IMG/VR virus record: IMGVR_UViG_3300027690_000140
Coordinates: 1-53,229 of that record
Source of the DNA: a virus
Taxonomy: Duplodnaviria; Caudoviricetes
Reading direction: 5' to 3' (one strand)
DNA length: 53,229 bases
Positions within the stretch are counted from its first letter, which is position 1; the number at the start of each line of letters is the position of its first letter. A program made the position numbers and the translations under genes. Positions 487 to 52,903 of the stretch are shown piece after piece. The notes beneath the pieces were generated by a model that was not told the origin of the DNA, did not search any database, and worked only from the letters and a program-made list of their open reading frames with translations.

Positions 487-866
487 AACATAGTCATTAC
501 CGTAAAACCATTCTTTTGGAAATATGCCCTGAACCTCTCCATGGTAGGGATTAGATAGAACTGAATTTGTTCTTCGATCTCTTTAACAGAAGTTTTGGCG
601 TTGATTATTTCGCCTTCTTCATCAGTTCCCGCAATAATAGCATTACCGGACAGTGGATAAACAAATCTGTCAAGCGTGAATCCGCCAACCTGATCTTTGA
701 GGTATCCTTCCTCGTCCACAAATATTGCATCCCTGTTTAATAAGGATACCGGACATTCAATCACTCTGCAATTTATCTGTTTATAAAATGCCTCGAGGGT
801 GTTCTCGATTTCGATTTCTTTTACCTGACGGTTTACTACGTCGATAAAAATTACTTTTACTTTCAT
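483..866 (-). CDS. DUF3846-like phage protein
   Basis: EIENTLEAFYKQI-C..IE...VDEEG..K...GNAIIAG.DEEGE pattern; leader motif upstream. Confidence 0.7.
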   Translation of the reverse strand: MKVKVIFIDVVNRQVKEIEIENTLEAFYKQINCRVIECPVSLLNRDAIFVDEEGYLKDQVGGFTLDRFVYPLSGNAIIAGTDEEGEIINAKTSVKEIEEQIQFYLIPTMERFRAYFQKNGFTVMTML

Positions 867-1033
867 GATTTGTGATTTTGGTAAAACAATTTGATAACTG
901 AAATAATCTCCTTCTTTGTAGGATTATTGCCGTATTGAAGGCGAACCTGTTCGGAAATAGCTTTTATATCATTTACACAGACAGGATCGTAACCGGCAAT
1001 GAGTTCTGATATTATCTTTCTGAACCTGTACAT
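863..1033 (-). CDS. Small hypothetical protein (56 aa, MYRFRKIISELIAG...YQNHKS), not in ORF track
   Basis: Hand-translated open frame fills the gap; its TGA overlaps the ATG of the 866 gene (ATGA coupling). Confidence 0.6.
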   Translation of the reverse strand: MYRFRKIISELIAGYDPVCVNDIKAISEQVRLQYGNNPTKKEIISVIKLFYQNHKS

Positions 1034-1224
1034 ACTGAGGTATAAAACCGTTCGACTTCTTCATCTATCATCTCAAGCAAGTCCTCGTAATGCAGTTCAT
1101 ATAAAGCATTTCCAAGTCCGTTTTTAAGATTGATAAAGATTCCTGATTCGTCACCAACCCGGTACTTTCTGTATGCAGCACATTCCTTTTCAATTCTGCG
1201 CATTATCCATGTCCTGAGTTCCAT
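1012..1224 (-). CDS. Hypothetical phage protein
   Basis: ORF in a tightly packed operon. Confidence 0.6.
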   Translation of the reverse strand: MELRTWIMRRIEKECAAYRKYRVGDESGIFINLKNGLGNALYELHYEDLLEMIDEEVERFYTSVCTGSER

Positions 1225-1420
1225 AATTCACGAATTTTGAAATGAATACTTCCCAAAGTTCCTCAGGATCAATTTCCTGAGTAGTGTCAGGGTAATGAAG
1301 TAAGAGATACTTAACAAACTTCAAACGATAACCTGTTTTAGAATTTGCAAAACCATTCCCGAGTTCCTGTTGGATATCGGAAAGATGGCTCAGAATTACT
1401 GTGCTTAGTTTAACTTTCAT
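1190..1420 (-). CDS. Hypothetical phage protein
   Basis: ORF preceded by the leader motif and a promoter. Confidence 0.75.
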   Translation of the reverse strand: MKVKLSTVILSHLSDIQQELGNGFANSKTGYRLKFVKYLLLHYPDTTQEIDPEELWEVFISKFVNYGTQDMDNAQN

Positions 1421-1448
1421 GATTAATGATTTTGGTTCTTAATTATAT

Positions 1449-1514
1449 TAAACTTACTCAATATAAATTAATTAAACAAGCGTTTTGCTGATCATTTATA
1501 TACTAATACGTATA
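1449..1514 (-). promoter_or_regulatory. Bacteroidota-type promoter (CTTG-N20-TAAGTTTA) plus upstream 16-bp box TATACTAATACGTATA (1499-1514)
   Basis: Matches -33/-7 consensus geometry; same layout at 2566, 7579 and 40937. Confidence 0.75.
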
Positions 1515-1522
1515 ATTATTCA

Positions 1523-2146: not shown

Positions 2147-2233
2147 GATTGATGATTTTGGTTTAAGCGGATAGGAGGGAAGTTACTCCCTCCGCAGCCG
2201 GGATTCTCGGCTTACTCCCTTGCACCCGTTTTG

Positions 2234-2536: not shown

Positions 2537-2565
2537 GATTTTATGGTTTTGATTGTTTTATGTAT

Positions 2566-2630
2566 CTAACTTACACATAATAAATGAAATATGCAAGCTC
2601 CGAACCAAAACATTTATACTAAAAGGGATA
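2566..2630 (-). promoter_or_regulatory. Promoter (CTTG-N20-TAAGTTAG) plus 16-bp box TATACTAAAAGGGATA (2615-2630)
   Basis: Same geometry as the promoters at 1449, 7579 and 40937. Confidence 0.7.
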
Positions 2631-3027: not shown

Positions 3028-3121
3028 GATCAATACAAGAAATATGAATAAAGGTTCAAAAAAAGGAGCTATACATTGGTAGTTTCAGAATTTTTAATAT
3101 TTCAAATTACTTAAAAAGATA

Positions 3122-5705: not shown

Positions 5706-7010
5706 CTACAAATTATAGGCATTAACGAGTTTCATGTAATTTATCAGTTCATTGATGGAGGCTGTCTGAAAACCACGTGTGCAGTCCCCAGAACCGTGTT
5801 TTAAGTGGATATATTCTTCAATGATTGTATTTAGGGTTTCATGCTTTCCTTTATCTAAGCTGTTTACCCCAAGAAGGATGGTTTCCTTCTCGATGCTACC
5901 CAGGATTTCAGGTTCGCCAAACCGGACAACTTTAATTGGGTAGGGGATTTCAAAACGGCATTCTTTCAAAAAGGATTAGATTTCTTTTAATGTCTGGGCT
6001 TGCAGGGGAGTTAATTGTACTTCCTGATAAATATGTCCTCTTTCACTGATAACAAAATTCCCGGACTGTACATGATTTCCTTTTAACGCCACCAGTGCAT
6101 GATATAACCGGGTGGGCAGAAATAAAGTCTTTGGTCTTTCTTCATCTGAAACATATCCGGCAAGGGTTTTCGGACAAATTCTCTTTCCTGAGATAGCCTC
6201 AGACCAGCTTTCGTCATTCAAATCTGTGTAGGATAATGATAAACAGGAATTATCCATCCGACTTTCCAAAAAGGAATCATCTGTCAGGTTTCCTACAAGA
6301 TGCCTGAGTATTTTCGGGTCATTACAACTATATAACAGTTTCCAGATTTCCTCGTTCAGCTCCCACTGGTATTTGATTAGCCTGTCCTCGTTTATGTCAA
6401 CATGAAACAAATCATAATCAAATACACTGTTCAGGTCGGTTTCATAGCACCGAATGCCTTTCCGGTAAATACAGGCTTTGCTTCCATGCTTTTTGTAAAT
6501 CCTGCCCCTTTCGTTTTCATACAACACCGTTTTATTCATGGCGAAATAATCATCCAGGGTGAACATAAACTGTTCAAGTTCATCATTCATCTGAATGATA
6601 ATTGTGGTTTTTTCTGTATCAATAAGATCAGCAAGCTGGGTTTCGGTGACAACTTCGAACATGACTAATCCCTCGTCCACTGCGTTGGAGTATAATTCCC
6701 GAATGGACTGCCAGAGTGTCCAGTCTTTACCCATGGAAGTGGTGATGGAAGTTTCCCTGCCTTCAATTTTCAGGACATTGAATTCTTTTCCCCGGAGCGT
6801 ATTAACAACGGTTTCGATTTTCAGCTTTCTTGGTCCTGACATAATATGAAGATCATAACCGTTTCGGACTAAGTAAGCTAATGCATACTTGTTTCCAGAA
6901 CCGAACATTCCGATTTTTGCAGGATCATCTGCTTTTGTGCTTGCGCCTATCAGCGTTAATGCTGCGGGCTCAAGAATGCCTTCATTAGCAATTATTAAAT
7001 ACTTTTTCAT
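5706..7010 (-). pseudogene. Permuted GHKL/HATPase-like protein with a C-terminal HExxH-like motif, split by an in-frame TAA at 5976-5978
   Basis: ORFs 5976-7010 and 5706-5969 are in the same frame (…KEI*SFLKECRF…); motifs NEG, IGMFGSG, IRELYSNAVDE and EEYIH; likely start at 7010 right after the leader motif. Confidence 0.7.
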
Positions 7011-7079
7011 GATTAATGATTTTGGTTTGATATAGACCCTCCGGAGAGGGTTTCTGCTATTCAAGCGTCGTCGGTATAC

Positions 7080-7550: not shown

Positions 7551-7578
7551 AATTTTGTGATTTTGGTTGTTATTGATA

Positions 7579-7643
7579 TAAACTTACTCATAATAAATGA
7601 ATTGTGCAAGCTTGTTGATCAAAAAAATATACTAAATGGGATA
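7579..7643 (-). promoter_or_regulatory. Promoter (CTTG-N20-TAAGTTTA) plus 16-bp box TATACTAAATGGGATA (7628-7643)
   Basis: Same geometry as the promoters at 1449, 2566 and 40937. Confidence 0.75.
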
Positions 7644-7926
7644 AATTTTTAAAAGATTGAGAAAAAGCGGATAATGAAAATTGATAAGTGTTTTTGAATA
7701 TTAGGAAATATGGTTTAATTTTATTTAGTGATTCTATTGGATCTTGGCAATTATTTTAAAATACCGAATAAAAAAGTAACAAAATTTAGTTTATATACAA
7801 TTATTGACCATAAACAATACAGAGTAAATAGAAATAGATAATTTAATAAAAACATTTCTTGTAAATAATTGACAGGACAAGTAAGCCAAAAATCCTTGAG
7901 AGTAGGTAATAATTAAATTAATTAAA

Positions 7927-8466
7927 ATGAGAAAAATAATTTTAATTTTTATCACACTGATAGTCTTCAGTAGTAGTCTTTTTTCGCAAGAATTAGTACT
8001 AAAACAGGCTGATTTAAATGCAGAGAAACGTCCTGCGGGAGAATTTACCAGTTATGAAAGTAAGGACGGTTCTGTTTATAAGATTGGAGACAAAATTACA
8101 ATTGGTGTTCCTTCTTCAAATAAAACATTTGCATTTATAACAGAAGGCGATGGTTTAATAATTCCAATTACTCAATTATTAGCAAGTGCAAGTGGTCAAC
8201 AGGTTGAAATAAAAAGGATTGATGTTGTAGGTAGTAAAAGAACTGGTTTTTTAGCTTCATTAAGATGTAAAGGACTAACTGGATTATCTAACTATAGCAT
8301 ACAACTTGAAAATGCTATTTCCGTTGGCGAAGTAAAGTCTTTTGGAATGACAAGTGATGAAGCTCTTACTGAACTTAAAAAAGCAAAGGATAAGTTAGAT
8401 TTAGAGATAATAACACAAGAAGAGTATGATAAAATTAAGGCTGATTTGATGAAGTATATAAAATAA
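7927..8466 (+). CDS. Exported protein with C-terminal SHOCT domain (moron)
   Basis: Signal peptide ending SLFSQ; C-terminal ELKKAKDKLDLEIITQEEYDKIKADL. Confidence 0.8.
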   Translation: MRKIILIFITLIVFSSSLFSQELVLKQADLNAEKRPAGEFTSYESKDGSVYKIGDKITIGVPSSNKTFAFITEGDGLIIPITQLLASASGQQVEIKRIDVVGSKRTGFLASLRCKGLTGLSNYSIQLENAISVGEVKSFGMTSDEALTELKKAKDKLDLEIITQEEYDKIKADLMKYIK

Positions 8467-8750
8467 CAGCCCATAATAAATAGGACTCTGAGCGGTCTGC
8501 AAGACTCAGCGAAGAGTATATACTGAACAACATCCCGATCAATTTCAGGATAATTTTTATTCTAAGCTGTATAGTCAATAATGGTTTTAGTGGTTTGCAA
8601 AAGTATAAAGCTCGTAAAAAAAGTCAGTGTAAATTGATAGGAAACGGCTTCGAAATCTCTTACTCGTCATACCACCGAATGTTAAACTACATCCAGTATT
8701 CTACAGGCATACCAGATTTTCACCCCCAAAAAATGTAACATTATCAAAAA

Positions 8751-8786
8751 AAACGAGTATAATAGAATAATTCTATATACTCGTTT
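8751..8786. repeat. Near-perfect inverted repeat / hairpin
   Basis: AAACGAGTAT(A)ATAGAA-TAA-TTCTATATACTCGTTT. Confidence 0.7.
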
Positions 8787-9113
8787 CTTAAATTTCATGA
8801 AATAAAGAAAGGGGAGGAGTGTATAAACAAATACTGACTTATATTTGGATAATTACGCACTAAATGTTGAAGAAAGCATTTTCAGCATCCTCCCCCTATT
8901 TTTTTAAATCTCTTTCCTGTATATTAACAACTATTTTTATAAAATCTGGTAATTCATTTAAATAATTGATATTCAATAATTTTAGAATTACACTTAATTC
9001 AAAGCTAATAAAAACATTGCTTTTGACTAAATTATTGCTCATCTTTTTAATGAATTTTCATCAAAATATGTTTCCAGAATTTTTAATTATATAATTATCA
9101 GCTACTTGTGTGG

Positions 9114-9147
9114 AAAATAAAAAATGCCCCGGTAATCAGCCGGGGCA
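9114..9147 (-). terminator. Intrinsic terminator ending the sRNA and probably the late transcript
   Basis: Perfect 8-bp stem TGCCCCGG/CCGGGGCA followed by TTTTTTATTTT on the minus strand. Confidence 0.85.
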
Positions 9148-9195
9148 CAACCAAAATCACAATCATGCCCCGAGAGGGGAAATGAAGGTGAGATG
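9117..9195 (-). ncRNA. Putative trans-acting antisense sRNA complementary to the shared early-gene leader motif
   Basis: Minus strand reads promoter, CCCC-TCTC-GGGG hairpin, CATGATTGTGATTTTGGTTGT, terminator; the core is the reverse complement of 12 gene leaders. Confidence 0.7.
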
Positions 9196-9198
9196 CTA

Positions 9199-9230
9199 TA
9201 AAGTTAAGGCTTTTTTAAAATAAAATCAAA
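9199..9230 (-). promoter_or_regulatory. Promoter TTTG-N20-TAACTTTA for the sRNA
   Basis: Same 20-nt spacing as the other phage promoters; no plausible CDS downstream before the terminator. Confidence 0.65.
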
Positions 9231-9240
9231 TGCTTTGAGG

Positions 9241-9825
9241 CTAAAACTTTATTCCGTACCGCAAAGAAAAATATCCAGTATTATTAACTCGACCATATTC
9301 AATTCCATATAAGGATTTGTTTTTAGAAATACAGTCCACAAAAATACCTGCACCCAAACCATTATACTGACTTAGCGAGATCCCACCATAAAATTCATTT
9401 TTCAAAGGCTCATTTACAATTACAGGTATTTTTTCGGTTATGGTGAGAGTTTCTTTTATTTCCCTGGGGACTTTTAACTGATATCCAATATTCCGACTTT
9501 CTATTGTACCTCGAACAGTATCATTTACATAAATAGAAATATCCTCCGTAACAAGGCTGTCTGAATAATAGTTAAGGGTAGGGGATATGGATACCGGAAC
9601 AGGGATTTCTTTTGGATACCATTTTACAACCGGCTCTGGCCTGATTGTATCCCTGAGAATTACTGTATCTGGTTTTTGATTTGCAATAATATTTATACTA
9701 TCTATCAAAGCAGAATATCGCTGTTCGGTTTCATGAATTCCGATTTTTCTGCCGGCAAGAAGTAATACAATGCACACGGCAAGCGCAATCAACAGTTTAT
9801 ACAATATACTACGTAAGGTTTCCAC
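9241..9825 (-). CDS. Membrane-anchored protein at the end of the late operon (spanin-like candidate)
   Basis: N-terminal TM helix, DT-rich linker, C-terminal beta-strands ending in F; near the lysis genes. Confidence 0.55.
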   Translation of the reverse strand: METLRSILYKLLIALAVCIVLLLAGRKIGIHETEQRYSALIDSINIIANQKPDTVILRDTIRPEPVVKWYPKEIPVPVSISPTLNYYSDSLVTEDISIYVNDTVRGTIESRNIGYQLKVPREIKETLTITEKIPVIVNEPLKNEFYGGISLSQYNGLGAGIFVDCISKNKSLYGIEYGRVNNTGYFSLRYGIKF

Positions 9826-9837
9826 TAAATAAAGAAT

Positions 9838-10164
9838 TTAAGGTATTGCATTCAAAACATTTTCTACTTCGGAAGTATAATCAAATGTTTTCACGAATGA
9901 TTTGTCTGCGTTGTAAATACGTGCTTCTACATTATAATATCCGCCTTCCAGGGTCAAACTTTCTGTATGAGTAACATTAAAGACTATAACACCATCTTCC
10001 GGATTAGGTATGCTTCCTGTGACACGCAATATTTCCTTATTGTTTAATATGAATGACAAAAACCCTGAATGGCCTGTGAGATTCCGGGGATTACCGTTTT
10101 CATCTACCACTCCTAACAGGATGCTGTGCGTATCACCGATTTTAATAGTTATGTCTTTGCTCAT
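9838..10164 (-). CDS. BppU N-terminal-like / virion structural protein
   Basis: IKIGDT...VDENG.PRNLTG...GVIVF pattern; late operon. Confidence 0.55.
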   Translation of the reverse strand: MSKDITIKIGDTHSILLGVVDENGNPRNLTGHSGFLSFILNNKEILRVTGSIPNPEDGVIVFNVTHTESLTLEGGYYNVEARIYNADKSFVKTFDYTSEVENVLNAIP

Positions 10165-12193: not shown

Positions 12194-12391
12194 TTACTTG
12201 TTCAACTTAAACCATCCGGCAGTAATACCTTCTAACAAAGTGTCTTTTGCGGTGAGAAATACCCAGCTTAACAGGATCAGTGAAATCATATCCACTACAT
12301 TGATCTGATCAAGAAATCTTCCGGTTATTCCTGCTATAAGAATAAATATTCCTATTCCGGTGGTACGCCAATTTTTAAATCTTTCTTCCAT
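12194..12391 (-). CDS. Holin
   Basis: 65 aa, two TM segments, KNWRTT.IG...AKD motif. Confidence 0.75.
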   Translation of the reverse strand: MEERFKNWRTTGIGIFILIAGITGRFLDQINVVDMISLILLSWVFLTAKDTLLEGITAGWFKLNK

Positions 12392-12678
12392 TCCAGTAGT
12401 TTTAATCGTTCATCTTCTAATAGTTCGCTTTTCAGTGCTTTCATTTCATATTCATAGTTGCTGTAAAGAGCAACCGGAGTGATATACAAAGTATCAGAAC
12501 TCAATTTCGACATAGTGCATCCGTAAACATTCTTAAATCCACATTCCCCTTCCCATCTTTCATGCACCATTATGTACAGGCCATCAAATTCTATGAACTT
12601 GTCATCACTGCATGGATCAAAATGATCCTTTTCACAAGAAAGTGTTATGGTTAATAACACGATAATTACTTTTTTCAT
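12352..12678 (-). CDS. Small lipoprotein with its own promoter (moron-like)
   Basis: MKK + hydrophobic stretch + LSC lipobox; promoter ATTG-N20-TAAGTTAG at 12698-12729. Confidence 0.7.
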   Translation of the reverse strand: MKKVIIVLLTITLSCEKDHFDPCSDDKFIEFDGLYIMVHERWEGECGFKNVYGCTMSKLSSDTLYITPVALYSNYEYEMKALKSELLEDERLKLLEWKKDLKIGVPPE

Positions 12679-12740
12679 TATCTCAGTGTTTATTAACCTA
12701 ACTTACTGAATATTAATTAATTAAACAATCTTTTTACACA

Positions 12741-15700
12741 TCATAATTTCGATATTACCTGATATTCCGTACCATCATACACAAATACCCAGCTTTCATA
12801 ATTGCTGACAGTAAATGATGTTACCACATCAGATGTTCGCCGGATATTTATAGATGATGAAATAGTTACCCCTCCGGTGGAACATCTTTTCACAATATAT
12901 TGTTGGCCGTCGATAGGATTAGAGGATAGGGTTATAGTTATACTGCTTGTATTAATACAAAATACAGCGTAGTGGGTTTCCCTGTCCAATGTAAGGCTGG
13001 AAGATGTTCTCAGAGTTTTTACAACCAGACCAGCATCAAAACAAAGATTTCTCAAGACTTTAAAATACGGTCTATCTATGTTCTGCCCTGCATAGGAATC
13101 ATAATAAGTGACATACCCAAATCCAGTTATCGGCCATTGAAATATTCCACCAAAACCTGTTCTCCCGTGTTTTATTCCACTTCCGGCCAAAAATGAATAA
13201 TAAGGGGATTTTGATGCATCAATTACCTGAACACCGGGACTTGTAAATAAACTGCTTAAGGTTATAACTACTTCATCTTCTGAGGTGGACGTATTTCTTA
13301 ATTTTATTTCATTGCCGGAAATAATAATCTGCCTGTTAGAAACTGCCGAACTTTCAATACTGGCTTTAGATGCAATCAGTTCCCCGTCCTGATTTACCCG
13401 GAACGGAGCGCTTGCCCTGTTTTCATACGTATTACCAGCCCAGATACGAATACTTGAACTTGCGGATCCGTCACCGCTTATTCCTGAATTAATAACGGAA
13501 TTCCCAAGCTGAATTACTCCACTGGTAATAATACCTCCGTCTATTGCTGTTTGCGCAGCATGCCTTCCTCCTCCTGCTCCAATCTGGCTTTTATAAGAAT
13601 ACAATCCCAAAATTTCTTCTTCACTAAGCGCCCTGGCATATATTCGTACTTCATCCACTACACCTTTCAATTTCCTTGTACCACTGTATGTATCATAACC
13701 GATATAGAAATTTGCGTCCGAGTTAATATTACCGATGGTTGCCGTAGCTTCGGAAATAAGCACCCCATCTATATATAGTTTAAGTACAGTCCCGTTATAC
13801 ACTCCGGCAACATGATGCCATATATTATCCTTTATATCATTTCCGGTTGTCATTATGGTTGCCAGCGTTCCGGAAGCATCACATCTTAACAACCTCATTG
13901 AATTGACTGTAAGCCCAATATAAGTTCCCGTTCCCCGTGAGTATAGAATTGGTCCGTATGAAGGTGAATCATTTGCGATTTTAACCCATGCAGATAAGGT
14001 AAACTCAGTTGTAAGTATTGCATTTGGGACAGCATCAGTCAGGACATAATCTGAAGTTCCATTGAGGCTGAGAGCATTTCCGCTTACACCTTCAACACGT
14101 GTTCCACCGGTTAAACTTCCGTCATACCCGTTATTACTATCGTCATAAGCTACAGTTCCTGAGGTTTCGTCCAGCGACCATAATGCTTTTAACTGCAAAT
14201 CAGCCGGCCACTTTGCTTTTGATATCCTTACATCTTCTTCCAGTTCATTATCCGTTGTTCCGCTCTGAAAGGTTATTTTCCCCTTAATGTCACCTGTGTC
14301 AAGGTCAACATAAGTATTACCGTCATTAGATGAGATTCTTCCGGTTTTTACGATTCTTCCGACAATCTGAGTACTTCCATAAGTAGCTGAAAAAACCCTT
14401 GCATTATCTACCTTCTTGTGAAATACCCCGATAAGGAAATAGTAATACGTGCTTCCTTCATCAAACTTGTATTGGGTAGTGGTAGAAAGAATATCGCAAG
14501 ATGTAGTTGCACGGTTGCAGCGTGCATAAATATAATACGACGTGCTGTCCAGTAATATAATGTTGCTTCCTGTAATGTCCCATGTTTTAATCGTAGCGTC
14601 ATCTATGGTAAAGTGGATCAGCTGTCCGGAAGTCCAATATAACCTGTGGTTGCTTGCATCATAATACACCCAAGTAAATTCAACATCTTTCAGAGTAAAT
14701 TGCTGGCTTTTCGCCCCGATGGAAAGCATGGTGGATTCAATGGATAACGGTTTGATGTTGGTATTATCAAAATATCCATCCGTATCAAAAATGAGGTTTT
14801 TCAGTGACTCCCAGGTTTTCCAGTTCATTCTTGCCTTGGATACATTCATCAAGTCATTTAACCTTACCAATTTTTGGGTTTCCACTTCATTGGCAATAAG
14901 ACGGTTTATTACTTGAACTTCCAGCCGGTCATTTAATTCAACTTTTATGATGTTTGGATTGAGAATATTTCTACTGACACTTTTTATAGTAATATTTGTA
15001 TCAATGTTCATATCTACATCTTTCACATGAACTGTATCGCCAGCCTGTAACGTAGTGATGGAGTTGTCCCTGATAAATGCAGGATCGAACTGCAAGTCAT
15101 ATGTAATATTCGGGTCAGCATTTTCATCCAGGTATTCCTGTGCCTTATTTTGAAGTTCCGTTTCAGCAGCAGAAATATAGCTGGCAGGCAGAAGGATGTC
15201 CACAAGTTTGTATTTATCCCCGATAGCAGGTTTAAGGGTGGAATTTGGCAAATCCATATCCATATCCTGAATTGGAATAATGGTAAAGGTTTTTGTGGTA
15301 TTATTATAGCCGGATATTTCAAACTCATACCCGGCAAGGTTTCCGGTATTGAAATGAACCTTAGCGGTAACACCTGACATCAGGTAATCGTTTAGGTCGA
15401 AGTCCATTCCTGAATCCGTGAAAGTGGTTAAACTCGGTGCCGTGCTTACCGTTCCGGTACGGGCAGGAAAGATTTCGTCAAATATTTTAACTGCTTCTAT
15501 CAGCCCGTAAGTGGCAACATTCTTTTCCAGTTTATTTGAACCGGCATCCGCAAACATCAACCTCCGGCTGTAATTACGATAGTCGGATGCAAGGTTTCTC
15601 ATACCTCCATATACCCATAGCCTTGTAATGATGTTTTTACTTCCTACCGGATTGCGGGTAATGGAATATAACCCTTTGTTTTTGCCGTATTCTACACTTA

Positions 15701-37902: not shown

Positions 37903-38659
37903 GATGCAAAGAAGTAGAGATTCTGTTATTAGCTATTTTTATGTAATTTGGATTAATTTCGGTTGCGATAAAATTCCGATTATATTTTATACAACTGATA
38001 CATTCCGAACCACTTCCCGCAAAAGGAATATAAACAATGTCTTTAGGATTACTAAAATGTTTTACAATCCTATCACTGAGCGCAAGTGGTTTTTGAGTTG
38101 GATGTTCAACTTTTTCATCCTTAAATCTTTTACCTGCAAGCGTTGGAAGTTGCCATACATCTCCAGCTAATCTGCCTTCTGAATTTGGCATCCATTCTTT
38201 TCCATTTTTAATTATTTTGTTTCTTAGTCGCTCTTGACTTTTATATGGTTCACGAATTTGGTGAAAAGTAAAATTATCTGTCTTACTAAACCATAAAATT
38301 GGCTCATAGAATGCATTTAATGTTTTATAACCAGAAAAACCATTTTCATAATTCCAAATAATTTGTCTTCTATAACGCATATTCATCTCATAAAGATAGC
38401 ATTGTATATAGCATTGATAATGATGAATACCATAAATAAAGATATTACCATTAGGTTTTAAAATACGGATACTTTCATCAATCCATTGTTTACTCCAGCA
38501 TAACCAATCTTGAACACTTTCCCAAAAGTCACTTCTATTACCAAAATCTTTCTTTAAATTATAGGGAGGATCGGCAATAATCAGATCTACTGATTCTTCT
38601 TCCATTTCCTGCATAAAGGTTATACAATTCTGTAAATAGATTTTATTTAACTCCTTCAT
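37880..38659 (-). CDS. DNA amino-methyltransferase (beta class)
   Basis: DPPY, HPTQKP and PFAGSGS motifs. Confidence 0.95.
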   Translation of the reverse strand: MKELNKIYLQNCITFMQEMEEESVDLIIADPPYNLKKDFGNRSDFWESVQDWLCWSKQWIDESIRILKPNGNIFIYGIHHYQCYIQCYLYEMNMRYRRQIIWNYENGFSGYKTLNAFYEPILWFSKTDNFTFHQIREPYKSQERLRNKIIKNGKEWMPNSEGRLAGDVWQLPTLAGKRFKDEKVEHPTQKPLALSDRIVKHFSNPKDIVYIPFAGSGSECISCIKYNRNFIATEINPNYIKIANNRISTSLHHDKITKS

Positions 38660-38664
38660 AGTTT

Positions 38665-39531
38665 TTACTTTTGAAAGATTAGGATGTATTGGTGATGAAT
38701 ATTTTCTACATAAGAAAATGGATATCCATAAGGAAATAGTTTTTTAGCGTTCTGAATTAGTACTTTTATACCTTTCAATTGAAATCTATTTTTAAGCTTT
38801 TTATCTATTAACTTATTTAAAAGATCAGAGTGAAAAGGATAAAATTCTGACTTATGTCTGAAATCACTTACAATTATACACATATATTTTCCTTGCTTTA
38901 ATAAGTCGTGACAACTTAAAAATATATTTGAAAGTTCGTCAATAAACTTTCTATATTCAGTAATATTACCTAAATCATCCTTGTTTTCGCTATATTTTGT
39001 ATCTTGCCCATTCTTCACTCTTACATTTGCTTTATGGTCTCTCTTTTCGAGAATATTCCAATAGGGTGGTGATGTTACTATAAAGTCAAAAAAATCTTTT
39101 TCAAACATTTCATTTATTTTTCTACTATCGCCACAAATTAAATGTTTTTGATCAATTATAAAATTAGACTCTTCTTTTAAACGATTCTGAGTAATTTCAC
39201 ACCATTTTTTTGAGAGTTCCACTCCAAATCCTTCTCTTTCAAGTTCAACACAAGCTTTAATAGTTGATCCAACACCTAAGAATGGATCTAAGATTCTTCC
39301 TCCTTTTTTTGTGAAAAAACGAATTAGTTTCATGATATCTGTGTATGAAAAAGGTGCAGGATGCATCTTTTCGTATTTTGCCTCAGGGCTTCCAGCTCCA
39401 AGACCCTTTTGATAAAAATAACTTTTTGTTTCTTGGATCCATTCTGTTGAAGTTAATTCGTTTAAAGCATTTCTTTTATCAATAAAAGAATTATTTGTGT
39501 TTTTAATTTTTTCTATTTCAAACATGTCCAA
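38665..39531 (-). CDS. DNA amino-methyltransferase (likely m4C)
   Basis: HPAPF, DPFLGVGS then TSPPY. Confidence 0.93.
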   Translation of the reverse strand: MDMFEIEKIKNTNNSFIDKRNALNELTSTEWIQETKSYFYQKGLGAGSPEAKYEKMHPAPFSYTDIMKLIRFFTKKGGRILDPFLGVGSTIKACVELEREGFGVELSKKWCEITQNRLKEESNFIIDQKHLICGDSRKINEMFEKDFFDFIVTSPPYWNILEKRDHKANVRVKNGQDTKYSENKDDLGNITEYRKFIDELSNIFLSCHDLLKQGKYMCIIVSDFRHKSEFYPFHSDLLNKLIDKKLKNRFQLKGIKVLIQNAKKLFPYGYPFSYVENIHHQYILIFQK

Positions 39532-39659: not shown

Positions 39660-39848
39660 TTACTGAAATGAACATACCTGCAAACATCCCGCATCCACCT
39701 CGTCATTCGGGTGATATGTTGATGCAGCATTCCGCCAGTCTTTCTCCATCCATCTATCTACTTCCTTATCGGAATTTGTGTCCTTTACTTTATAAGCCAT
39801 CACGGTGTAACACGATTCGTGTACCAGCTTCCAGAGGGAGTATTTCAT
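39660..39848 (-). CDS. Hypothetical protein
   Basis: ATGA-coupled to the upstream ORF. Confidence 0.5.
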   Translation of the reverse strand: MKYSLWKLVHESCYTVMAYKVKDTNSDKEVDRWMEKDWRNAASTYHPNDEVDAGCLQVCSFQ

Positions 39849-40174
39849 ATGCTGATTCCGGATTTTATGTGATCTCTAAACGGTAGATGCTCTAAAAAAT
39901 ACTTATACAAATCAACGTACTTCCCTTCCACATTCAGGATATAGAGGGAGTTCAGATTATCCAGGGCATCGTATTTATCAAACTTACCTTCATATTCGCC
40001 GGATTCGTTAAGTTCTTCCGCCCATTGCGTAAATGATTTCACCCTGTTTCGCTTTTTCCAGTCATACTTAATAAGCTGGCAAAGTTTTTTCGGGGTATCG
40101 ATCACTGACGCACCATTGATTTTGGTAGTGTGATCAATTACTCGACCGTCTGGTAACAAGATTGAAAATTTCAT
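39845..40174 (-). CDS. Hypothetical early protein
   Basis: Leader motif directly before the ATG. Confidence 0.8.
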   Translation of the reverse strand: MKFSILLPDGRVIDHTTKINGASVIDTPKKLCQLIKYDWKKRNRVKSFTQWAEELNESGEYEGKFDKYDALDNLNSLYILNVEGKYVDLYKYFLEHLPFRDHIKSGISI

Positions 40175-40190
40175 GATTGCGTGATTTTGG

Positions 40191-40445
40191 TTAATTTTTA
40201 CATAATTCTAATTTCCAATCATAAACTAATTTATTTAATCGCTTCTCAAATGATTCAAATGTTTTAGAACTATGAATAATTTTGCCATTGAATAAAATTT
40301 TATAACCAACAAATGGTGTGCGAGGCTCAAACCATATTTCAGCAATTCTTATATCATCTTTTTGTATAGTTTCTTGAAATTTTTCATTACTAAACTCTAA
40401 ATGATTACCGTTAAGCATTTCTCGTTTTAATTCTTTTGTTTTCAT
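40191..40445 (-). CDS. Hypothetical early protein (start corrected to 40445, MKTKELKRE)
   Basis: Leader motif precedes the ATG at 40445; the ORF-track extension NQNHAIM is the motif itself. Confidence 0.8.
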   Translation of the reverse strand: MKTKELKREMLNGNHLEFSNEKFQETIQKDDIRIAEIWFEPRTPFVGYKILFNGKIIHSSKTFESFEKRLNKLVYDWKLELCKN

Positions 40446-40464
40446 GATTGCGTGATTTTGGTTG

Positions 40465-40689
40465 TTACTGCCATAAGTAGTTTTCATTCACCTGAGTGAT
40501 TCCAAATGATGTTTCAACTTCAACCATCGAAACATCTTGCATTAACTCAGTAACGGTTTCCATGTTACCGGTAATCTTTAGTATGTCAATTACTTGATTT
40601 CCTTTTTCATCCAACACCATACAGATATTGGATTTTGCAGGTTTACTAACATCAAACCTTGTGCCTTTTGCAGTTGTGATCATTTTCAT
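40465..40689 (-). CDS. Hypothetical early protein (start corrected to 40689, MKMITTAKG)
   Basis: Leader motif precedes the ATG at 40689. Confidence 0.8.
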   Translation of the reverse strand: MKMITTAKGTRFDVSKPAKSNICMVLDEKGNQVIDILKITGNMETVTELMQDVSMVEVETSFGITQVNENYLWQ

Positions 40690-40705
40690 AATTGCATGAT
40701 TTTGG

Positions 40706-40909
40706 TTATGCAAATTTCTTACAATATTCATTATAGAATTTCTCTGCTTCTTCAAGCGTGTCAAACACTCCGAGGCAGTTGTCATACTCTGATACGGAGT
40801 ATTCACCGGTTTTGAGATAGTCCAGGTACATTACTGCACCATCGAAACTATCGGACTTAATTGTGTCCTCAATCAGATGGTCGATTTCTTCAAAGCTACT
40901 TGTTCTCAT
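40706..40909 (-). CDS. Hypothetical acidic early protein
   Basis: Leader motif and promoter; D/E-rich. Confidence 0.8.
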   Translation of the reverse strand: MRTSSFEEIDHLIEDTIKSDSFDGAVMYLDYLKTGEYSVSEYDNCLGVFDTLEEAEKFYNEYCKKFA

Positions 40910-40936
40910 AATTTGTGATTTTGGTTGTTTGTATTG

Positions 40937-41001
40937 CTAACTTACTAAATATAAATGATATAAACAAATTTAATGACATGAATTTTATACTAAAAAGCAT
41001 A
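40937..41001 (-). promoter_or_regulatory. Promoter (TTTG-N20-TAAGTTAG) plus 16-bp box TATACTAAAAAGCATA (40986-41001)
   Basis: Same geometry as the promoters at 1449, 2566 and 7579. Confidence 0.75.
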
Positions 41002-43692: not shown

Positions 43693-43740
43693 GATTTATG
43701 ATTTTGGTTATCAATACAATATACGAATATTTGTTGATAT

Positions 43741-44511
43741 TTACAAGGGTTTCCGACAGGAATATTGCGAAATATCCAGGTCAATTTTATACCACCTGTC
43801 AATGGGTTTAAGTGCAAGTTTTGGAAAGTCTTTTTTAAGGTATTCATATGTGGATTGAGTTAATCCTGTGCGGTCAAGCATCTGAAATCCGCCTTTATTC
43901 GAACCATCCTTAAACTGAACCCCGATTCTTCCATAGAGCAGGGTATAATACCCGTCCCTGAGAACATACAGGTATAGTGCAGTATCATCATTATGCTTTA
44001 CGTTCTCATTCAGGTATAACAGGAACTTTGGACGTATGATCCACCCATGAAAAAGTTCACAATTCCGGTGAGTGTACTTTCTTGCTTTCCCGATGGATTC
44101 AAAGAGGTGGTTTTTCGGGTCAAGAAACCGTACTGCACCTAATTTCTCATCTCCAAAGTCCGGAACTATATCTTTAACAGACGAATTGAAAATTTGAGCC
44201 GAAAACCCTGTTTTCCCGTTGCTGAAATACTTCGAAATAAATCCACTGCAATCATCATCAACCCTGCATACCAGATCATAGCCGTTTTGGATAGCATAAT
44301 TCCCGATGAAGTTCATTGCATATCCAATTCCCTGGTCATTCTTTTCAATATTCACTAATTGTGTCTTGCCTATATTAAGTTTATAATGTACGTATTCAGA
44401 AGGCTCGACAAAAACCCGATAATCTATATCAATTTCATTAATCCATTTCAGGATGGTTTTCTGAAGGTCATAAGGACGTCCTTTTGAAGGTATTGCTAAT
44501 AGTGTTTTCAT
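43741..44511 (-). CDS. TAGT/GREB1-like GT-A glycosyltransferase
   Basis: IPSKGR start, DDD motif, GSNKGG. Confidence 0.8.
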   Translation of the reverse strand: MKTLLAIPSKGRPYDLQKTILKWINEIDIDYRVFVEPSEYVHYKLNIGKTQLVNIEKNDQGIGYAMNFIGNYAIQNGYDLVCRVDDDCSGFISKYFSNGKTGFSAQIFNSSVKDIVPDFGDEKLGAVRFLDPKNHLFESIGKARKYTHRNCELFHGWIIRPKFLLYLNENVKHNDDTALYLYVLRDGYYTLLYGRIGVQFKDGSNKGGFQMLDRTGLTQSTYEYLKKDFPKLALKPIDRWYKIDLDISQYSCRKPL

Positions 44512-45260
44512 CAGTAGGGGAATATAAGTGAACGTTCACCTTCATGGACTTTTTTCTTCGTTGGGCCAGAAGATTTAACCTGAACCACTTCCCCGAATAC
44601 TTTCCGGAGTTTGAGGGTGTTTTCCTTCATGGTTTCAATTGTCCGGTAGTCATTGCATCCCCCGATAGCATTGAAATTGTCCACCGTCATAAATGAGTAA
44701 CGGTTATCAATATAAACAAAGCGGTATTTGTACATTGCCAGACAAGTCATATAATGATCCTCTCCCTCTGAGAATCTGAGGTCATAACTCAGCGTATGCC
44801 CCTTAACAAACCCCATGAAGGAATTATTTACAAATCCGGTAAGGGATATGGGTTTCATCGGGTTGTATTCTACAGGATTTCTGATTTTTGAGAATCCGAA
44901 CAATCCTGTACCAAGGCTTTTAGCTGTTTCAGCATTTTCATAAATAAGCTCAAGGATAAGTTCTTTGTCTTTCACCCGAATTTTATCAGGATCTTCCTCA
45001 AAGTTTCTGCGGACTTCTGAAACATCATCATCAATCATAAAAAGATGATCTTCTTTCCACCTTTCCAGAATAAACTGCCTGGTTGCGGTAATTCCTTTGA
45101 TGTGATCCGGTGTGCCAACTACAGCACATTCTTTATTATGCTTCTTATATTCTGCAACCTCATTACCTGGTACGATCAGGATAAGCTGATCAATAAGGTT
45201 TTTGGTAAGCACTTTCGTTGCCCTGCCTTTACTGGGGCAAACAATGTCAATTCTTCTCAT
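44511..45260 (-). CDS. TAGT/GREB1-like GT-A glycosyltransferase
   Basis: PSKGRA, GITATRQFI, MIDDD, ED and GGC motifs. Confidence 0.85.
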   Translation of the reverse strand: MRRIDIVCPSKGRATKVLTKNLIDQLILIVPGNEVAEYKKHNKECAVVGTPDHIKGITATRQFILERWKEDHLFMIDDDVSEVRRNFEEDPDKIRVKDKELILELIYENAETAKSLGTGLFGFSKIRNPVEYNPMKPISLTGFVNNSFMGFVKGHTLSYDLRFSEGEDHYMTCLAMYKYRFVYIDNRYSFMTVDNFNAIGGCNDYRTIETMKENTLKLRKVFGEVVQVKSSGPTKKKVHEGERSLIFPY

Positions 45261-48013: not shown

Positions 48014-48887
48014 ATTTCAGAATTTTTAAATCAGGCCTTTGAATATTGCCGTTGACCTTGGCTTTATGGGACTCTTTAAATTTCTCTTTCCAGTTCTGGC
48101 TGTTCCAGCCCCCCTCCATGGGACTGTGGATATCACCGATGAATTTTTGAAAGGAGTGTTTGATTTCGCCGGCTTTTTCCTTGTAAAGCTTGTAGAATTT
48201 GAACTGTTCATCAAAGTATTCCAGCTTGCCAAGGGTCTTTAATTTGCAGGCAAAATAATAGGCTGTCTGCATTTTAGGGTAGTGATTCAGTTCATTTAGA
48301 GCAAAATATTCCATGATTGCGTTCATTCTTTGCTTAACATCTGCCTGATCATTTTGCAGAATTGAAAAATTGTTTTCTTCCTCGTGCGCATGAATTTCAT
48401 TTTCTCTTCTTTTCTCTTCTTTACTCTTCTCTTCTTTTCTTTGTGTATTTCCGGCGGAATTTTCCGGAGTTAAGGCGGAAGTATGACTATCATCTTCTGT
48501 GTTTAGAAGCATTTGTCTTAATTCCTCCGGAGTAATGATGGTATTTTTCCTTTTCCGATAAGCTTCTTTAATTGATTCAAGGAATTTAAAATCAACTATA
48601 TATTTTTGATCCCAAAACTCATTGATAAAGGCACCCAGTCTAACAAGATCATTAATAATATCAATAAGCTTTTCTTCAGGTACCAAACATCTTGCTGAGA
48701 GGTACATTAACAATGCTTCATCATTCAGGTTAAGAAAATGATCATCAGAATTACCAAGTTCTTCAAGTAGTTTAAACCAGGTCGCATAACCATCATTACC
48801 GTACTTATTTTCTATAAAGAACATTTTCTTACCGTGTTTGGTGCTGTGAGGAAAGTAATCGACATCTTTTCTTTCAATTCTTGCCAT
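48006..48887 (-). CDS. Replication initiator-like protein (DUF4373/Lin1244-like N-terminus)
   Basis: DYFPH...KYGNDGYA.WFKLLE; K/E-rich linker; upstream of dnaB. Confidence 0.8.
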   Translation of the reverse strand: MARIERKDVDYFPHSTKHGKKMFFIENKYGNDGYATWFKLLEELGNSDDHFLNLNDEALLMYLSARCLVPEEKLIDIINDLVRLGAFINEFWDQKYIVDFKFLESIKEAYRKRKNTIITPEELRQMLLNTEDDSHTSALTPENSAGNTQRKEEKSKEEKRRENEIHAHEEENNFSILQNDQADVKQRMNAIMEYFALNELNHYPKMQTAYYFACKLKTLGKLEYFDEQFKFYKLYKEKAGEIKHSFQKFIGDIHSPMEGGWNSQNWKEKFKESHKAKVNGNIQRPDLKILKYD

Positions 48888-48933
48888 ATTCCATGATTTG
48901 TGATTTTGGTTATTACAATATACTCATAAATAT

Positions 48934-50506: not shown

Positions 50507-50508
50507 TC

Positions 50509-50949
50509 TCAGAACGGAAGATCATCTTCTCCTGTAAATGCTATATCATCAAAAGTTGCTGGTGCAGGTTCGTGATTTTTGGTTGCGCCCGTGCTTTGTG
50601 TTTTGGAGGGTTGAGAGGAGTTTTCGCTCTTACCGCCCAACATTTTAAGGTTTTCTACTATAAGCTTGATAAAGGTTTTTTCCGTTCCGTCTTTATCTGT
50701 ATACTTCTCTGTCCTCTGCCTGCCTTCAACATATACAAGACTTCCTTTATCGAGATACTTTTCAATAACTTCCGCAAGTTTACCCCAGGCCTCAAAACGA
50801 AACCATTCTGTCTCGCTGACCTGGTCGCCCCGTTTGTTTGTATATTTTCGTGTGCTGGCCACCGAGAATTTCGAAACTACATTTCCCCCTTCCAGGTGTT
50901 TTGTCTCAGGCTTTGCGCCCAGATTTCCGATTACAAAAGTTTTGTTCAT
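50509..50949 (-). CDS. ssb: Single-stranded DNA-binding protein
   Basis: OB-fold motifs and DDLPF tail. Confidence 0.97.
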   Translation of the reverse strand: MNKTFVIGNLGAKPETKHLEGGNVVSKFSVASTRKYTNKRGDQVSETEWFRFEAWGKLAEVIEKYLDKGSLVYVEGRQRTEKYTDKDGTEKTFIKLIVENLKMLGGKSENSSQPSKTQSTGATKNHEPAPATFDDIAFTGEDDLPF

Positions 50950-50951
50950 AA

Positions 50952-51809
50952 CTAATTATTCTGAGGTTCTACATCTGTTACATTAAAAATAGTGCTGAGT
51001 TTTTTCCGGCTTATATTCTGCGGTTTATCTGCAATGATTACAGTTCCCCTTTCATCAACTGTCAGTGAAGCTCCACCTTCGATTTGCGAATCCATGGTCA
51101 GGGCTCTTTCGATTATAGTGTTTTTAGGGAGCAGTTTTGCGATCTGTTTTACAACCGCTTTCCTATACATCCACCTCTGCGGATCGTTTTCTATACTGTA
51201 CAAGTCCGGTTTTTTGCTTTTCGCTTTTATCTGGTTCAATTCTTCAAGTGTCATATATTTGAACTCCGGATCAGTTCCATCAATGTGAGCAACGGCAAAA
51301 ATGCCCTTCAATGCACCCCTGTCACCTTCTGCCGGCCGGAAAATAAATTTCCAGTTCATGGATTCATCTATCCACCGGTCAAACTGATCATTTTTAAATA
51401 CGATTTCTGTAAAAATTTTCAGGATACGGGGATTTCTGTATAACAGGTGAGTAATGCCATGATACCCGAATTGAAACGTCGCTTCGTTTTTATAAGGAAT
51501 AATATAACAATGCTGTGCAGGAGTATTTGGCTCAAGCCCGAATTCTGCTGCTGTCAGGATAGAGGCAAATAAGGACTGCCTGTCGCAATTTAAGAGGGAA
51601 GGAGTTTTTCGTATGGAATTCTCCACTACAGCCATAAATTTTTCCGGGCTGAACCCTGAATTCCCGATTAGTTTGACTATTGTTTTTTCGTATTGGGTTA
51701 ACTGCCTTCTGAAAATCTGGTTAGGGGTTAACTGTTTTTCTGCCGGTTTGGTTTCAGTGACGGTTGCAGACAATTCAGGCATACCATCATTAATATGATT
51801 GTTGTTCAT
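50952..51809 (-). CDS. recT: RecT single-strand annealing protein
   Basis: GLEP....CYIIPY....FQFGY.G and M..KAVVKQ..KLLP motifs. Confidence 0.92.
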   Translation of the reverse strand: MNNNHINDGMPELSATVTETKPAEKQLTPNQIFRRQLTQYEKTIVKLIGNSGFSPEKFMAVVENSIRKTPSLLNCDRQSLFASILTAAEFGLEPNTPAQHCYIIPYKNEATFQFGYHGITHLLYRNPRILKIFTEIVFKNDQFDRWIDESMNWKFIFRPAEGDRGALKGIFAVAHIDGTDPEFKYMTLEELNQIKAKSKKPDLYSIENDPQRWMYRKAVVKQIAKLLPKNTIIERALTMDSQIEGGASLTVDERGTVIIADKPQNISRKKLSTIFNVTDVEPQNN

Positions 51810-51821
51810 GATGTTTACTTT

Positions 51822-52757
51822 TTAAAATTTAGCTTCGATACGTGATTTTTTGCTCCATGCGGGCATAGCAAGGGTGATCATTCCGTATTCATTATCTGAA
51901 TACACCTCGTACCCTTTAAAATAGTTGGAGTTAATGGCTTCCCTGATCATGTTCAACCTTCGGAGGTAAATCATTTGTGCATCGATGATATCCTCGTACA
52001 ACAAATCATATAGTACAGCACTGTAAGGCTCTGATTTTTCCACGGCAATAAACAGAAAGGTTTCATACTCCTTTCCGAGACAGGCTGAAACTATATCCAG
52101 TCCCATAGCAGCCTGAATGTCATATTCATATTCAGAAGCGGTTTTAGAGAATCCTGCCGGGCTTGCATCAGTAGTGCTTTTAAGGTCCACATCAAAGAAT
52201 TTTGTTTTATGGACAAAGTCAGGACGCGTACGTACTTTAATCTCATATTCGTTTTTTACCTTATAATCCACATCAACTGGTTCTACCTTTGCCAGAGAAC
52301 CGTTAGGCTTAAAGACATACTTCACATAAAAAGCATGCTCAATTATGCCGTTTTTGAAATCAAAAATTTCATTGATGCCTTTCATGGACATTACACTGTC
52401 TCTCATAGCTGAGATAAGAGCAAATTGCGTTTCAAACAGAATAGATTTTCCCGGATTGGCTGTTCGGATGCTTTCAATATATTCCTTATTGCCTTTTCCG
52501 GATAAAGAGGGTGTTCCGTCCCTGTTGATAGCAAAAGGAGAGGGGAGTTCCTTATTCAGGATTACCTTTACATCCTTTTCAAACTGTTCAGGTTCGAGAA
52601 CGAGCGTATGGAATGCTGTTCCAATATCAAATGCAGCTTTTTGTTCAGCCGGTGCATTTTTCTTTGTCAGGAATTCGAGGGGTGTCCTGACTCCCCTAAT
52701 GTCCGAGGGACTGATCCAGTCCTTGCGGTCAAAGTAAAGATTGTCTTTGATAATCAT
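51822..52757 (-). CDS. RecE-like PD-(D/E)XK exonuclease (DUF3799-like)
   Basis: GTAFH..VLEP, RPD, DLKST, Y.IQAA and FIAVEK motifs. Confidence 0.9.
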   Translation of the reverse strand: MIIKDNLYFDRKDWISPSDIRGVRTPLEFLTKKNAPAEQKAAFDIGTAFHTLVLEPEQFEKDVKVILNKELPSPFAINRDGTPSLSGKGNKEYIESIRTANPGKSILFETQFALISAMRDSVMSMKGINEIFDFKNGIIEHAFYVKYVFKPNGSLAKVEPVDVDYKVKNEYEIKVRTRPDFVHKTKFFDVDLKSTTDASPAGFSKTASEYEYDIQAAMGLDIVSACLGKEYETFLFIAVEKSEPYSAVLYDLLYEDIIDAQMIYLRRLNMIREAINSNYFKGYEVYSDNEYGMITLAMPAWSKKSRIEAKF

Positions 52758-52903
52758 TTTTCATTGTGATTTTGGTTGGACAAATAAACCTGATGATAAT
52801 CTATTGGCTTCTTTTTGCTACCCCTTATAATTATTCTCACCTGTAAGTAAAGCAGGGTTGTGCATACAATTATTATAATGAGTGTGCCAAGTAAAAATTT
52901 CAT
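52754..52903 (-). CDS. Small membrane protein (49 aa, MKFLLGTLIIIIVCTTLLYL...), not in ORF track
   Basis: Hand-translated; ATGA-coupled to the exonuclease; -7 box TAAGTTTA at 52925-52932. Confidence 0.6.
   Translation of the reverse strand: MKFLLGTLIIIIVCTTLLYLQVRIIIRGSKKKPIDYHQVYLSNQNHNEK

Follow-up and report, generated by a model that had tools for sequence, protein, structure and literature searches.

What does it mean when one exact ten-nucleotide sequence stands just ahead of the start codons of a dozen unrelated genes in a single phage genome, and what would read such a sequence? The question is raised by the virus record IMGVR_UViG_3300027690_000140, a Caudoviricetes sequence of 53,229 bp that is referred to here as the window. 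The record is classed as a provirus, with a completeness estimate of 96% and a G+C content of 36%. Most of its genes lie on the minus strand, and the plus strand holds seven. The repeated sequence reads TGATTTTGGT on the plus strand and ACCAAAATCA in the sense of the mRNA, and is called the leader core below. An earlier note on this DNA had described twelve near-identical leaders confined to non-structural genes, and had proposed that they are the target of a small RNA (sRNA) encoded near 9.1 kb or of a translational regulator. The link to translation starts of non-structural genes holds, and the interpretation as a whole is partly supported.

An exact leader before non-structural genes

The 10-mer TGATTTTGGT is by far the most-repeated 10-mer of the window. 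It occurs in 14 exact copies in 53 kb compared to an expectation of 0.36, and the largest count in 100 shuffled sequences was 2. An ATG lies no more than 12 nt away, in the sense of the motif, for all 14 copies. Thirteen copies read ACCAAAATCA on the minus strand and one, at 9150..9159, is inverted, so the statement that all copies share one orientation has to be corrected. Twelve copies sit 2-7 nt before an ATG (6 nt in seven, 7 nt in four, and 2 nt in one), with the extended consensus aACCAAAATCA-Y-N(1-2)-AAT-Y-ATG. These are the 12 ATGs that had been named earlier, each of which is indeed preceded by a copy. The coordinates given for them were those of the ATGs, and the motifs themselves lie 7-8 nt higher; two copies had been overlooked, one within a gene (40117) and the inverted one.

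Counts by gene are based on a list of 69 genes that was curated by hand from the open reading frames (ORFs), and gene classes were taken from a PHROGs scan of 60 window proteins and a Pfam scan of 29. Within 16 nt of a start, a 10/10 match to the core is found in 12 genes, a 9/10 match in none, and an 8/10 match in three. This gap at 9/10 indicates that the motif forms a discrete class and is not the upper end of a continuum. The leader heads 12 of the 37 minus-strand genes outside the structural and lysis block and none of the seven plus-strand genes. The earlier note had named an equal frequency before structural genes as evidence against its reading; none of the 25 structural or lysis genes carries the leader, and the restriction (12/37 vs 0/32) is significant in a Fisher test (p=2.4e-4). 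All 12 starts linked to the motif are ATG, compared with 62 of the 69 genes overall. The 12 downstream proteins are mutually dissimilar (all pairwise E>0.08), so no paralogy was found among the genes, and the repeat did not arise by gene duplication.

All start-linked cores lie on the minus strand. In the accessory region at 1-8 kb, which encodes RadC, DUF3846, an anti-repressor, and a phrog_8203 protein, the core at 873..882 lies 6 nt before ATG 866 of the DUF3846 gene (483-866) and within the tail of a small ORF (863-1033). The cores at 1427..1436, 2153..2162, and 7017..7026 each lie 6 nt before an ATG, namely 1420 of a 76-aa gene (with a promoter-like box 12 nt upstream), 2146 of a RadC-like gene (preceded by a GC hairpin at ~2174-2193), and 7010 of the phrog_8203 gene (preceded by a hairpin at ~7036-7051). 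The core at 7558..7567 is 7 nt before ATG 7550 of a 156-aa gene and has a promoter-like box 11 nt upstream. Four tiny genes (39845-40909) have one copy each. Three of these cores are 7 nt from the start codon (40182..40191 for ATG 40174, 40453..40462 for ATG 40445, and 40697..40706 for ATG 40689), and the fourth, at 40916..40925, is 6 nt before ATG 40909 with a promoter-like box 11 nt upstream. The first A of the cores at 40182 and 40697 is shared with the TAA stop of the upstream gene, and at 40453 the upstream stop is 2 nt 5' of the core. The upstream TAA thus overlaps or abuts the motif at three of the four tiny-gene junctions, where the leader fills the entire intercistronic space. The extra minus-strand copy at 40117..40126 is inside the gene 39845-40174, where it is read as T-K-I, and an out-of-frame ATG follows directly 3' of it.

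Further along, the core at 43699..43708 precedes ATG 43692 of an MgsA_C-like gene by 6 nt. The last two leaders are followed by two AUGs that are 7 nt apart and in different frames (48887-48894 and 52757-52764). The core at 48901..48910 lies 6 nt before ATG 48894, which opens a 6-codon mini-ORF, and the replication-initiator gene starts at 48887. The core at 52767..52776 lies 2 nt before ATG 52764, which opens an 11-codon mini-ORF, and 9 nt before the ATG of the exonuclease gene at 52757. The two ATGs named earlier at these sites are therefore real but open mini-ORFs, and the long ORFs start 7 nt on in the other frame. Core 52767-52776 also sits within the tail of ORF 52754-52903. Retention of the motif inside coding tails that read QNH was seen as described before, with ORF 863-1033 ending in ...YQNHKS* and ORF 52754-52903 in ...SNQNHNEK*; both overlap the next start as ATGA. 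Copies that are adjacent neither to a promoter-like box nor to a hairpin lie between or within cistrons.

Initiation without a Shine-Dalgarno sequence

Four results point to a host of the Bacteroidota type, which does not use Shine-Dalgarno (SD) sequences. Homologues of the tail protein encoded at 12741-16238 occur in 72 phage records, which come almost entirely from phages of Bacteroides, Riemerella, or Porphyromonas (by organism name, Bacteroides 28, Riemerella 14, Porphyromonas 12, 'Bacteriophage' 13, and others 5). An SD-like 4-mer is present at -20..-4 in one of the 69 curated genes vs 11.6% of random 17-mers. In the 57 motif-free genes, adenine peaks at 46-63% at -14..-11 and reaches 49% at -3, which is the signature described for Flavobacterium johnsoniae in the cited sections of Baez et al. 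(2019, PMC6847099). For the DnaB protein, most of the closest structural clusters are from Bacteroidota, which serves as a lead only. The phage itself is probably a temperate siphophage.

Against this background, the motif can be assigned with high confidence as an RNA-level translation-initiation leader that acts independently of SD pairing. At the usual spacing, the AAAA stretch within the core occupies -13..-10 or -14..-11, and an AAU at -4..-2, which gives an A at -3, is kept in all 11 copies with 6-7 nt spacing. According to the same sections of Baez et al. (2019, PMC6847099), initiation in Bacteroidia is promoted by an A at each of positions -3, -6, -12, and -13 and by an A tract spanning -14..-11. 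Over -20..+5, bases are predicted to be unpaired with a probability of 0.62 in the 12 motif genes and 0.54 in the 57 others (p=0.014). The leader thus combines the features of SD-independent initiation of the Bacteroidia type, which are A at -3, an A tract at -11..-14, no SD sequence, and low structure. The motif contains neither GGAG nor AGGA. Pairing with 16S rRNA was rejected on comparison with three Bacteroidota 16S sequences, which may not be those of the host: the best duplexes reach -10 to -12 kcal/mol, 22-65% of shuffled leaders are as good, and the longest exact complement of the core is 5-6 nt. A divergent promoter was likewise discarded by reading the sequence, where the reverse complement TGATTTTG resembles TAnnTTTG but lacks both the A of position 2 and a partner at -33.

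Several leaders are linked to promoter-like elements. A repeat of the form TTG-N20-TAAGTTWR is found in five minus-strand copies of ~45-60 nt (1451-1495, 2568-2599, 7581-7625, 12700-12744, and 40939-40983), and it fits the Bacteroidetes -33/-7 promoter pattern as that pattern is given in PMC6847099. Three of the five are followed by a leader 11-12 nt downstream (copies 1427, 7558, and 40916). The other two serve genes 2234-2536 and 12352-12678, which have no leader. An upstream TTAGTATA element accompanies four of the five, and one copy of the repeat heads the lysis cassette. The hairpins before copies 2153 and 7017 are GC-rich and have no U-run.

Whether the sequence is simply a generic leader of the phylum can be judged from its occurrence elsewhere. 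The extended leader pattern was found in 87 genome stretches, and among the best 80 of these 87 about 44 titles name Bacteroidota. The match opens an ORF of at least 60 aa in 52 of the 87 stretches. In ten of them it heads one 78-aa protein, the acyl carrier protein acpP (PF00550, E=1.2e-15), and in this clade of ten loci the leader is exactly AACCAAAATCAAAAATCATG. It starts 8 nt after a TATTTTTG box of the TAnnTTTG type, and this layout is also that of the promoter-proximal phage copies. Record titles of the clade name Chitinophagaceae or Chitinophaga in six cases and metagenome-assembled genomes of Sphingomonadales in four. In 28 other genomes sampled from the phylum, the acpP leader resembles this one in style and differs from it in sequence, so ribosomes do not need this exact leader.

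The extended pattern occurs as a single match per stretch in 33 viral, 87 genome, and at least 120 metagenome stretches. The largest number of 10-mer copies in any fetched locus was three, and the fetched motif loci showed no relation to the window beyond the motif. A comparison with Bacteroidota genomes gave 6-17 copies per Mb in five genomes, each reached via a locus with one match, vs 263 per Mb here. In density and exactness, the leader therefore goes beyond a generic one, as had been suspected, but the same sequence is also a natural, rare, single-copy leader in Bacteroidota. Relatives of the phage were sought as well. Megablast of 13.6 kb of the window against phage records gave no match, and the large terminase (TerL) has a best match of 31% identity among these records. 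Among viral contigs, TerL matched one locus at 55% identity, which is the nearest relative; its 9.5 kb contain no shared leader. Protein 5976-7010 and the portal had no matches among viral contigs, and DnaB had one match at 31% identity. Two distant siphophages of Bacteroidota with annotated genomes, Riemerella phage RAP44 and Porphyromonas phage005a, have no 10-mer that is repeated at gene starts in a similar way.

The invariant core and what may recognise it

The exactness of the core calls for an explanation beyond ribosome loading. In the 11 copies with 6-7 nt spacing, non-consensus cells number 0 of 110 in the core vs 16 of 66 in the last six spacer positions (p=4e-8), which bears out the earlier claim that the repeat is more exact than an A-rich leader of the generic kind. 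Neighbouring leaders share spacer variants, and those at 40182, 40453, and 40697 are 92-100% alike over 25 nt. An invariant core next to a drifting spacer suggests sequence-specific recognition by a non-ribosomal factor, because recent copying would move the spacer with the core, and under a composition rule the core would be free to change. From this pattern of sequence conservation, the exact core is likely to be a handle for co-ordinated control.

The explanation that we favour, and hold to be probable though well short of certain, is a shared start-associated initiation module whose core also serves as a handle for a trans-acting factor on the 12 genes. A module of ~20 nt, ACCAAAAUCA-N2-3-AAU-Y-AUG, would form the common mRNA leader of 12 unrelated early or accessory genes. 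The A4 tract at -13..-10 or -14..-11 and the A at -3 would promote SD-independent loading of the ribosome. Being poor in G and relatively unstructured, the module could serve equally at the 5' ends of short transcripts, at sites that follow hairpins, and as a linker from stop to start. As the invariance of the core exceeds what ribosome loading needs, one phage-specific trans-acting factor may control the whole gene set. For this factor, the sequence offers a single concrete candidate, the inverted copy at 9150, through which the lysis/late transcription unit would carry a 21-nt anti-leader at its 3' end.

Several observations weigh against this explanation. Searches of phage records, viral contigs, genomes, and metagenomes found no relative of the phage that carries the motif. 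The acpP case indicates that ribosomes can use the leader with no phage factor, which leaves the invariance of the core as the sole argument for a regulator, and this invariance could itself stem from recent copying or gene conversion, since the leaders form spacer sub-families. At 48901 and 52767 an out-of-frame AUG precedes the real start, which would be a strange feature in an optimised initiation site; the sections cited from Baez et al. (2019, PMC6847099) report a depletion of AUG close to the start codons of Bacteroidetes. Hand curation of the 69-gene list that underlies the counts also belongs among these points.

The inverted copy at 9150-9159 is the only copy with no gene following it. 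On the plus strand it is followed by a 6-codon ORF only, and then by the converging end of gene 9241-9825. A minus-strand RNA would read this site as the 21-nt anti-leader CAUGAUUGUGAUUUUGGUUGU. Downstream (3') of gene 9241-9825, the last of the lysis/late unit, this RNA would contain an imperfect hairpin with a CCCC/GGGG core, the anti-leader, and a terminator. A candidate anti-leader RNA, or the 3' end of the lysis/late transcript, can be placed at 9116..9196 (minus strand), with the hairpin core at 9168-9179 and the terminator at 9148-9124 followed by a U-run. The terminator has 9 pairs, 7 of them GC, and then UUUUUUAUUUU, and is the best terminator-like site in 1-13 kb. As it sits 3' of the anti-leader, every transcript that ends there carries the anti-leader. 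A fold of 101 nt that includes the anti-leader has z=-4.1, and the centroid structure leaves the U-rich part of the anti-leader largely open, with its 5' part partly paired. Searching Rfam returned no match at the gathering score and only sub-threshold, sRNA-shaped matches at 9109-9295.

The earlier suggestion that an element at 9.1 kb is the partner of the leaders gains from the fact that this site is a perfect reverse complement of the leader, able to form 10-16 contiguous base pairs with each copy, in duplexes that are predicted at -23 to -29 kcal/mol and that cover the AUG in most copies. In a specific form of the regulator idea, the late 3' end or a ~80-nt RNA, processed from the transcript or made from its own promoter, would pair with the leader across the AUG and block 30S binding on all 12 mRNAs as late transcription rises. 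We regard this as a tentative possibility. It is consistent with the gene-less position of the inverted copy, its location on the target strand directly 5' of the best local terminator, the stable fold with a partly open seed, and the late block, in which no leader copy is found. A seed complementary to target initiation regions and adjoining an intrinsic terminator is also an arrangement expected of a small RNA, and a TTTG-N20-TAACTTTA box at ~9230-9199, ~30 nt upstream, resembles a Bacteroides-type promoter, although this is weak evidence. Yet any inverted copy is complementary to the others by construction, so the pairing is not independent evidence; the promoter pattern is permissive, with ~50 matches in the AT-rich window; and part of the seed is paired within its own hairpin. 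Moreover, the layout of a hairpin, a few nucleotides, and a leader recurs at 2153 and 7017, so the copy at 9150 may be the relic of an inverted cassette whose hairpin may now act as a terminator. Identification of the anti-leader as the regulator is thus an attractive minority reading. That a single antisense RNA would act as a master temporal switch, in which the lysis/late 3' end pairs with 12 early or accessory leaders and stops their translation together, seems doubtful on the sequence features at hand. If it did so, core and anti-leader should co-vary in relatives. An operator for a phage RNA-binding protein, either a repressor like RegA of phage T4 or an RNase like RegB that recognises the core, would also suit the exactness of the core. 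According to the parts cited from Uzan and Miller (2010, PMC3014915), RegA sites overlap or adjoin the AUG, are A+U-rich with a 5' A tract and unstructured, and are present on ~30 early mRNAs, and RegB cleaves a short motif in early initiation regions. However, PHROGs named no RegA or RegB homologue, other such factor, or translational repressor among 60 window proteins and Pfam gave none among 29, which leaves this explanation with no candidate gene in the scanned set and makes it unlikely.

The core may also have no dedicated regulator at all. It could be a very good Bacteroidia initiation site that was spread by recombination of the RecE/RecT type and that doubles as a handle for cassette exchange. 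The phage encodes exonuclease VIII-like and RecT-like genes, the in-gene copy at 40117 and the inverted copy resemble recombination scars, and both the shared spacer variants at 40182, 40453, and 40697 and the acpP leader, which functions with no phage factor, fit such an origin. Nevertheless, copying would bring the spacer along, and the spacer varies while the core does not. The absence of 9/10 variants from the 69 gene starts is also hard to reconcile with spread of this kind, and a core of 10 nt is short for homologous recombination, so we consider it rather improbable. A role at the DNA level, as a single-box promoter 6-7 bp before the ATG of a leaderless mRNA or as an operator, is very improbable. 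A spacing of 6-7 nt is indeed that expected between a -10/-7 box and the start of transcription, and two copies that follow hairpins give a layout of terminator and then promoter. Three copies, though, lie 11-12 nt 3' of promoter-like boxes and the acpP copy 8 nt 3' of a TAnnTTTG box, and these copies would be transcribed. In addition, the AAU kept at -4..-2 would be needless for a leaderless promoter, four consecutive tiny cistrons would each have a box of their own, and no phage RNA polymerase or sigma factor was found among the window proteins scanned with PHROGs and Pfam. The initiation module with a core recognised by a trans-acting factor therefore remains our preferred explanation.

Known repeats and other features of the window

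The closest parallel to the leader is found in mycobacteriophages. The start-associated sequences (SAS) of Cluster K mycobacteriophages are a 13-bp repeat present in 11-19 copies, 3-7 bp before mostly ATG starts; according to the cited parts of Pope et al. (2011, PMC3203893), they occupy the non-structural half of the genome in one orientation, sometimes overlap the upstream stop, and are absent from host genomes. A longer upstream element, the extended SAS (ESAS), is present at about half of the sites, and each K1 genome has one reversed SAS away from gene starts (PMC3203893, same parts). As late as 2024 and 2025, the role of SAS was described as unknown or ill-defined, and ESAS are now interpreted as containing putative promoters. 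The leader shares with SAS a short asymmetric repeat, the copy number (14 here), the position a few nucleotides before the ATG, the restriction to non-structural genes, one orientation (13/14 here), and upstream stops within the repeat. Its density of 6-17 copies per Mb in the five Bacteroidota genomes, which may not be hosts, may correspond to the rarity of SAS in host genomes. The five-copy promoter-like repeat before a subset of leaders recalls ESAS. However, SAS have an AGGAG core of the SD type and can pair with 16S rRNA, whereas the leader has no SD sequence and no 16S complementarity beyond that of shuffled leaders. The host phylum of mycobacteriophages also differs from the Bacteroidota type, and SAS are conserved across ~188 genomes, while the searches described above found no relative with the leader.

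The reversed sites give a weaker parallel. In Anaya (K1), the reversed SAS at 59870-59882 is on the same strand as the genes that carry SAS and in the middle of a non-coding gap of 385 bp, unlike the reversed site here, which abuts a terminator. The reversed SAS of ZoeJ is the ordinary leader of a leftward gene, and no reversed SAS was found in 49 kb scanned of Pixie. The parallel thus holds for Anaya only and is suggestive only, which lends the idea of an antisense switch little weight. If such a switch were real, the same logic might explain the single reversed SAS of K1 mycobacteriophages.

Other systems resemble the leader in part. Citrobacter phage Mordin has a 26-bp repeat upstream of eight hypothetical gene starts in one genome arm, which its authors liken to SAS in the portion cited of Guan et al. 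(2015, PMC4611695). That repeat is longer and contains GGAG, and Mordin is a lytic myophage of an SD-using host. The 'Kozak-like', SD-free initiation regions of Bacteroidia (PMC6847099, cited sections) have in common with the leader A at -3, an A-rich stretch at -11..-14, no SD sequence, low structure, and a -7 box that is followed by a short leader. Composition obeys a loose rule in host leaders, which vary between genes and clades, in contrast to the one exact 10-mer that is reused 12 times here. With RegA and RegB, the likeness is that one factor acts on many early-mRNA initiation regions for shut-off, but RegA sites have no exact shared sequence, at least in the parts cited of Uzan and Miller (2010, PMC3014915). 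A search limited to one literature library found no such repeat in Bacteroidetes phages and no phage sRNA that acts on a shared early leader.

The leader can therefore be regarded as an SD-free counterpart of the start-associated sequences, as both the SAS and the Mordin repeat have an SD core. SAS have been known since 2011 with no established function, and their SD core let them be dismissed as extended ribosome-binding sites. A host type that ignores SD sequences separates a shared exact leader from ribosome pairing, and this speaks for such repeats as recognition handles in co-ordinated control. With its inverted copy beside a terminator, the window also offers a simple and testable antisense model. 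In addition, the leader, which matches the acpP leader of one clade, may be a compact and strong initiation element for expression tools in Bacteroidota.

The remaining genes of the window are arranged in blocks. The structural and lysis block (9241-30593) encodes terminase, portal, major head protein, tape measure, tail proteins, and endolysin. Replication and recombination genes at 42-53 kb encode an exonuclease VIII-like protein, RecT, SSB, a replication initiator, DnaB, and a ParB-like protein. In the accessory region, ORFs 5976-7010 and 5706-5969 (minus strand) match the N-terminal (2-301) and C-terminal (308-394) parts of phrog_8203, respectively, and lie in the same frame with one TAA between them. 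The pair at 5706-7010 is thus a gene split by a nonsense codon, a read-through case, or a sequencing error. The plus-strand gene 7927-8466 has an N-terminus that, read from the sequence, resembles a signal peptide. It is followed 3' by ~650 bp with no plausible ORF (8467-9120), within which plus-strand terminator-like hairpins lie at ~8748-8790 and ~8810-8905.

The DNA of the window is present in sediment-metagenome runs, and contigs from three DNA runs, possibly the window's own source, contain no letters that differ from it. Long public contigs stop near 8502, and 8503-10000 has no long contig cover. A hairpin-containing stretch at 8476-8517 is common to many short contigs with other continuations, and looks like an assembly-breaking repeat. 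A further promoter-like repeat is found on the plus strand at 2740-2779 and 7686-7725, before plus-strand genes. No integrase was found inside the window. Public contigs carry a near-identical 35-nt copy of the plus-strand repeat ~4 kb beyond the left end of the window, so the element probably extends past it. Finally, two adjacent glucosyltransferase-like genes (phrog_842) are located at 43741-45260 and two DNA methyltransferase genes at 37880-39531, both on the minus strand; this gene content suggests that the phage modifies its own DNA.

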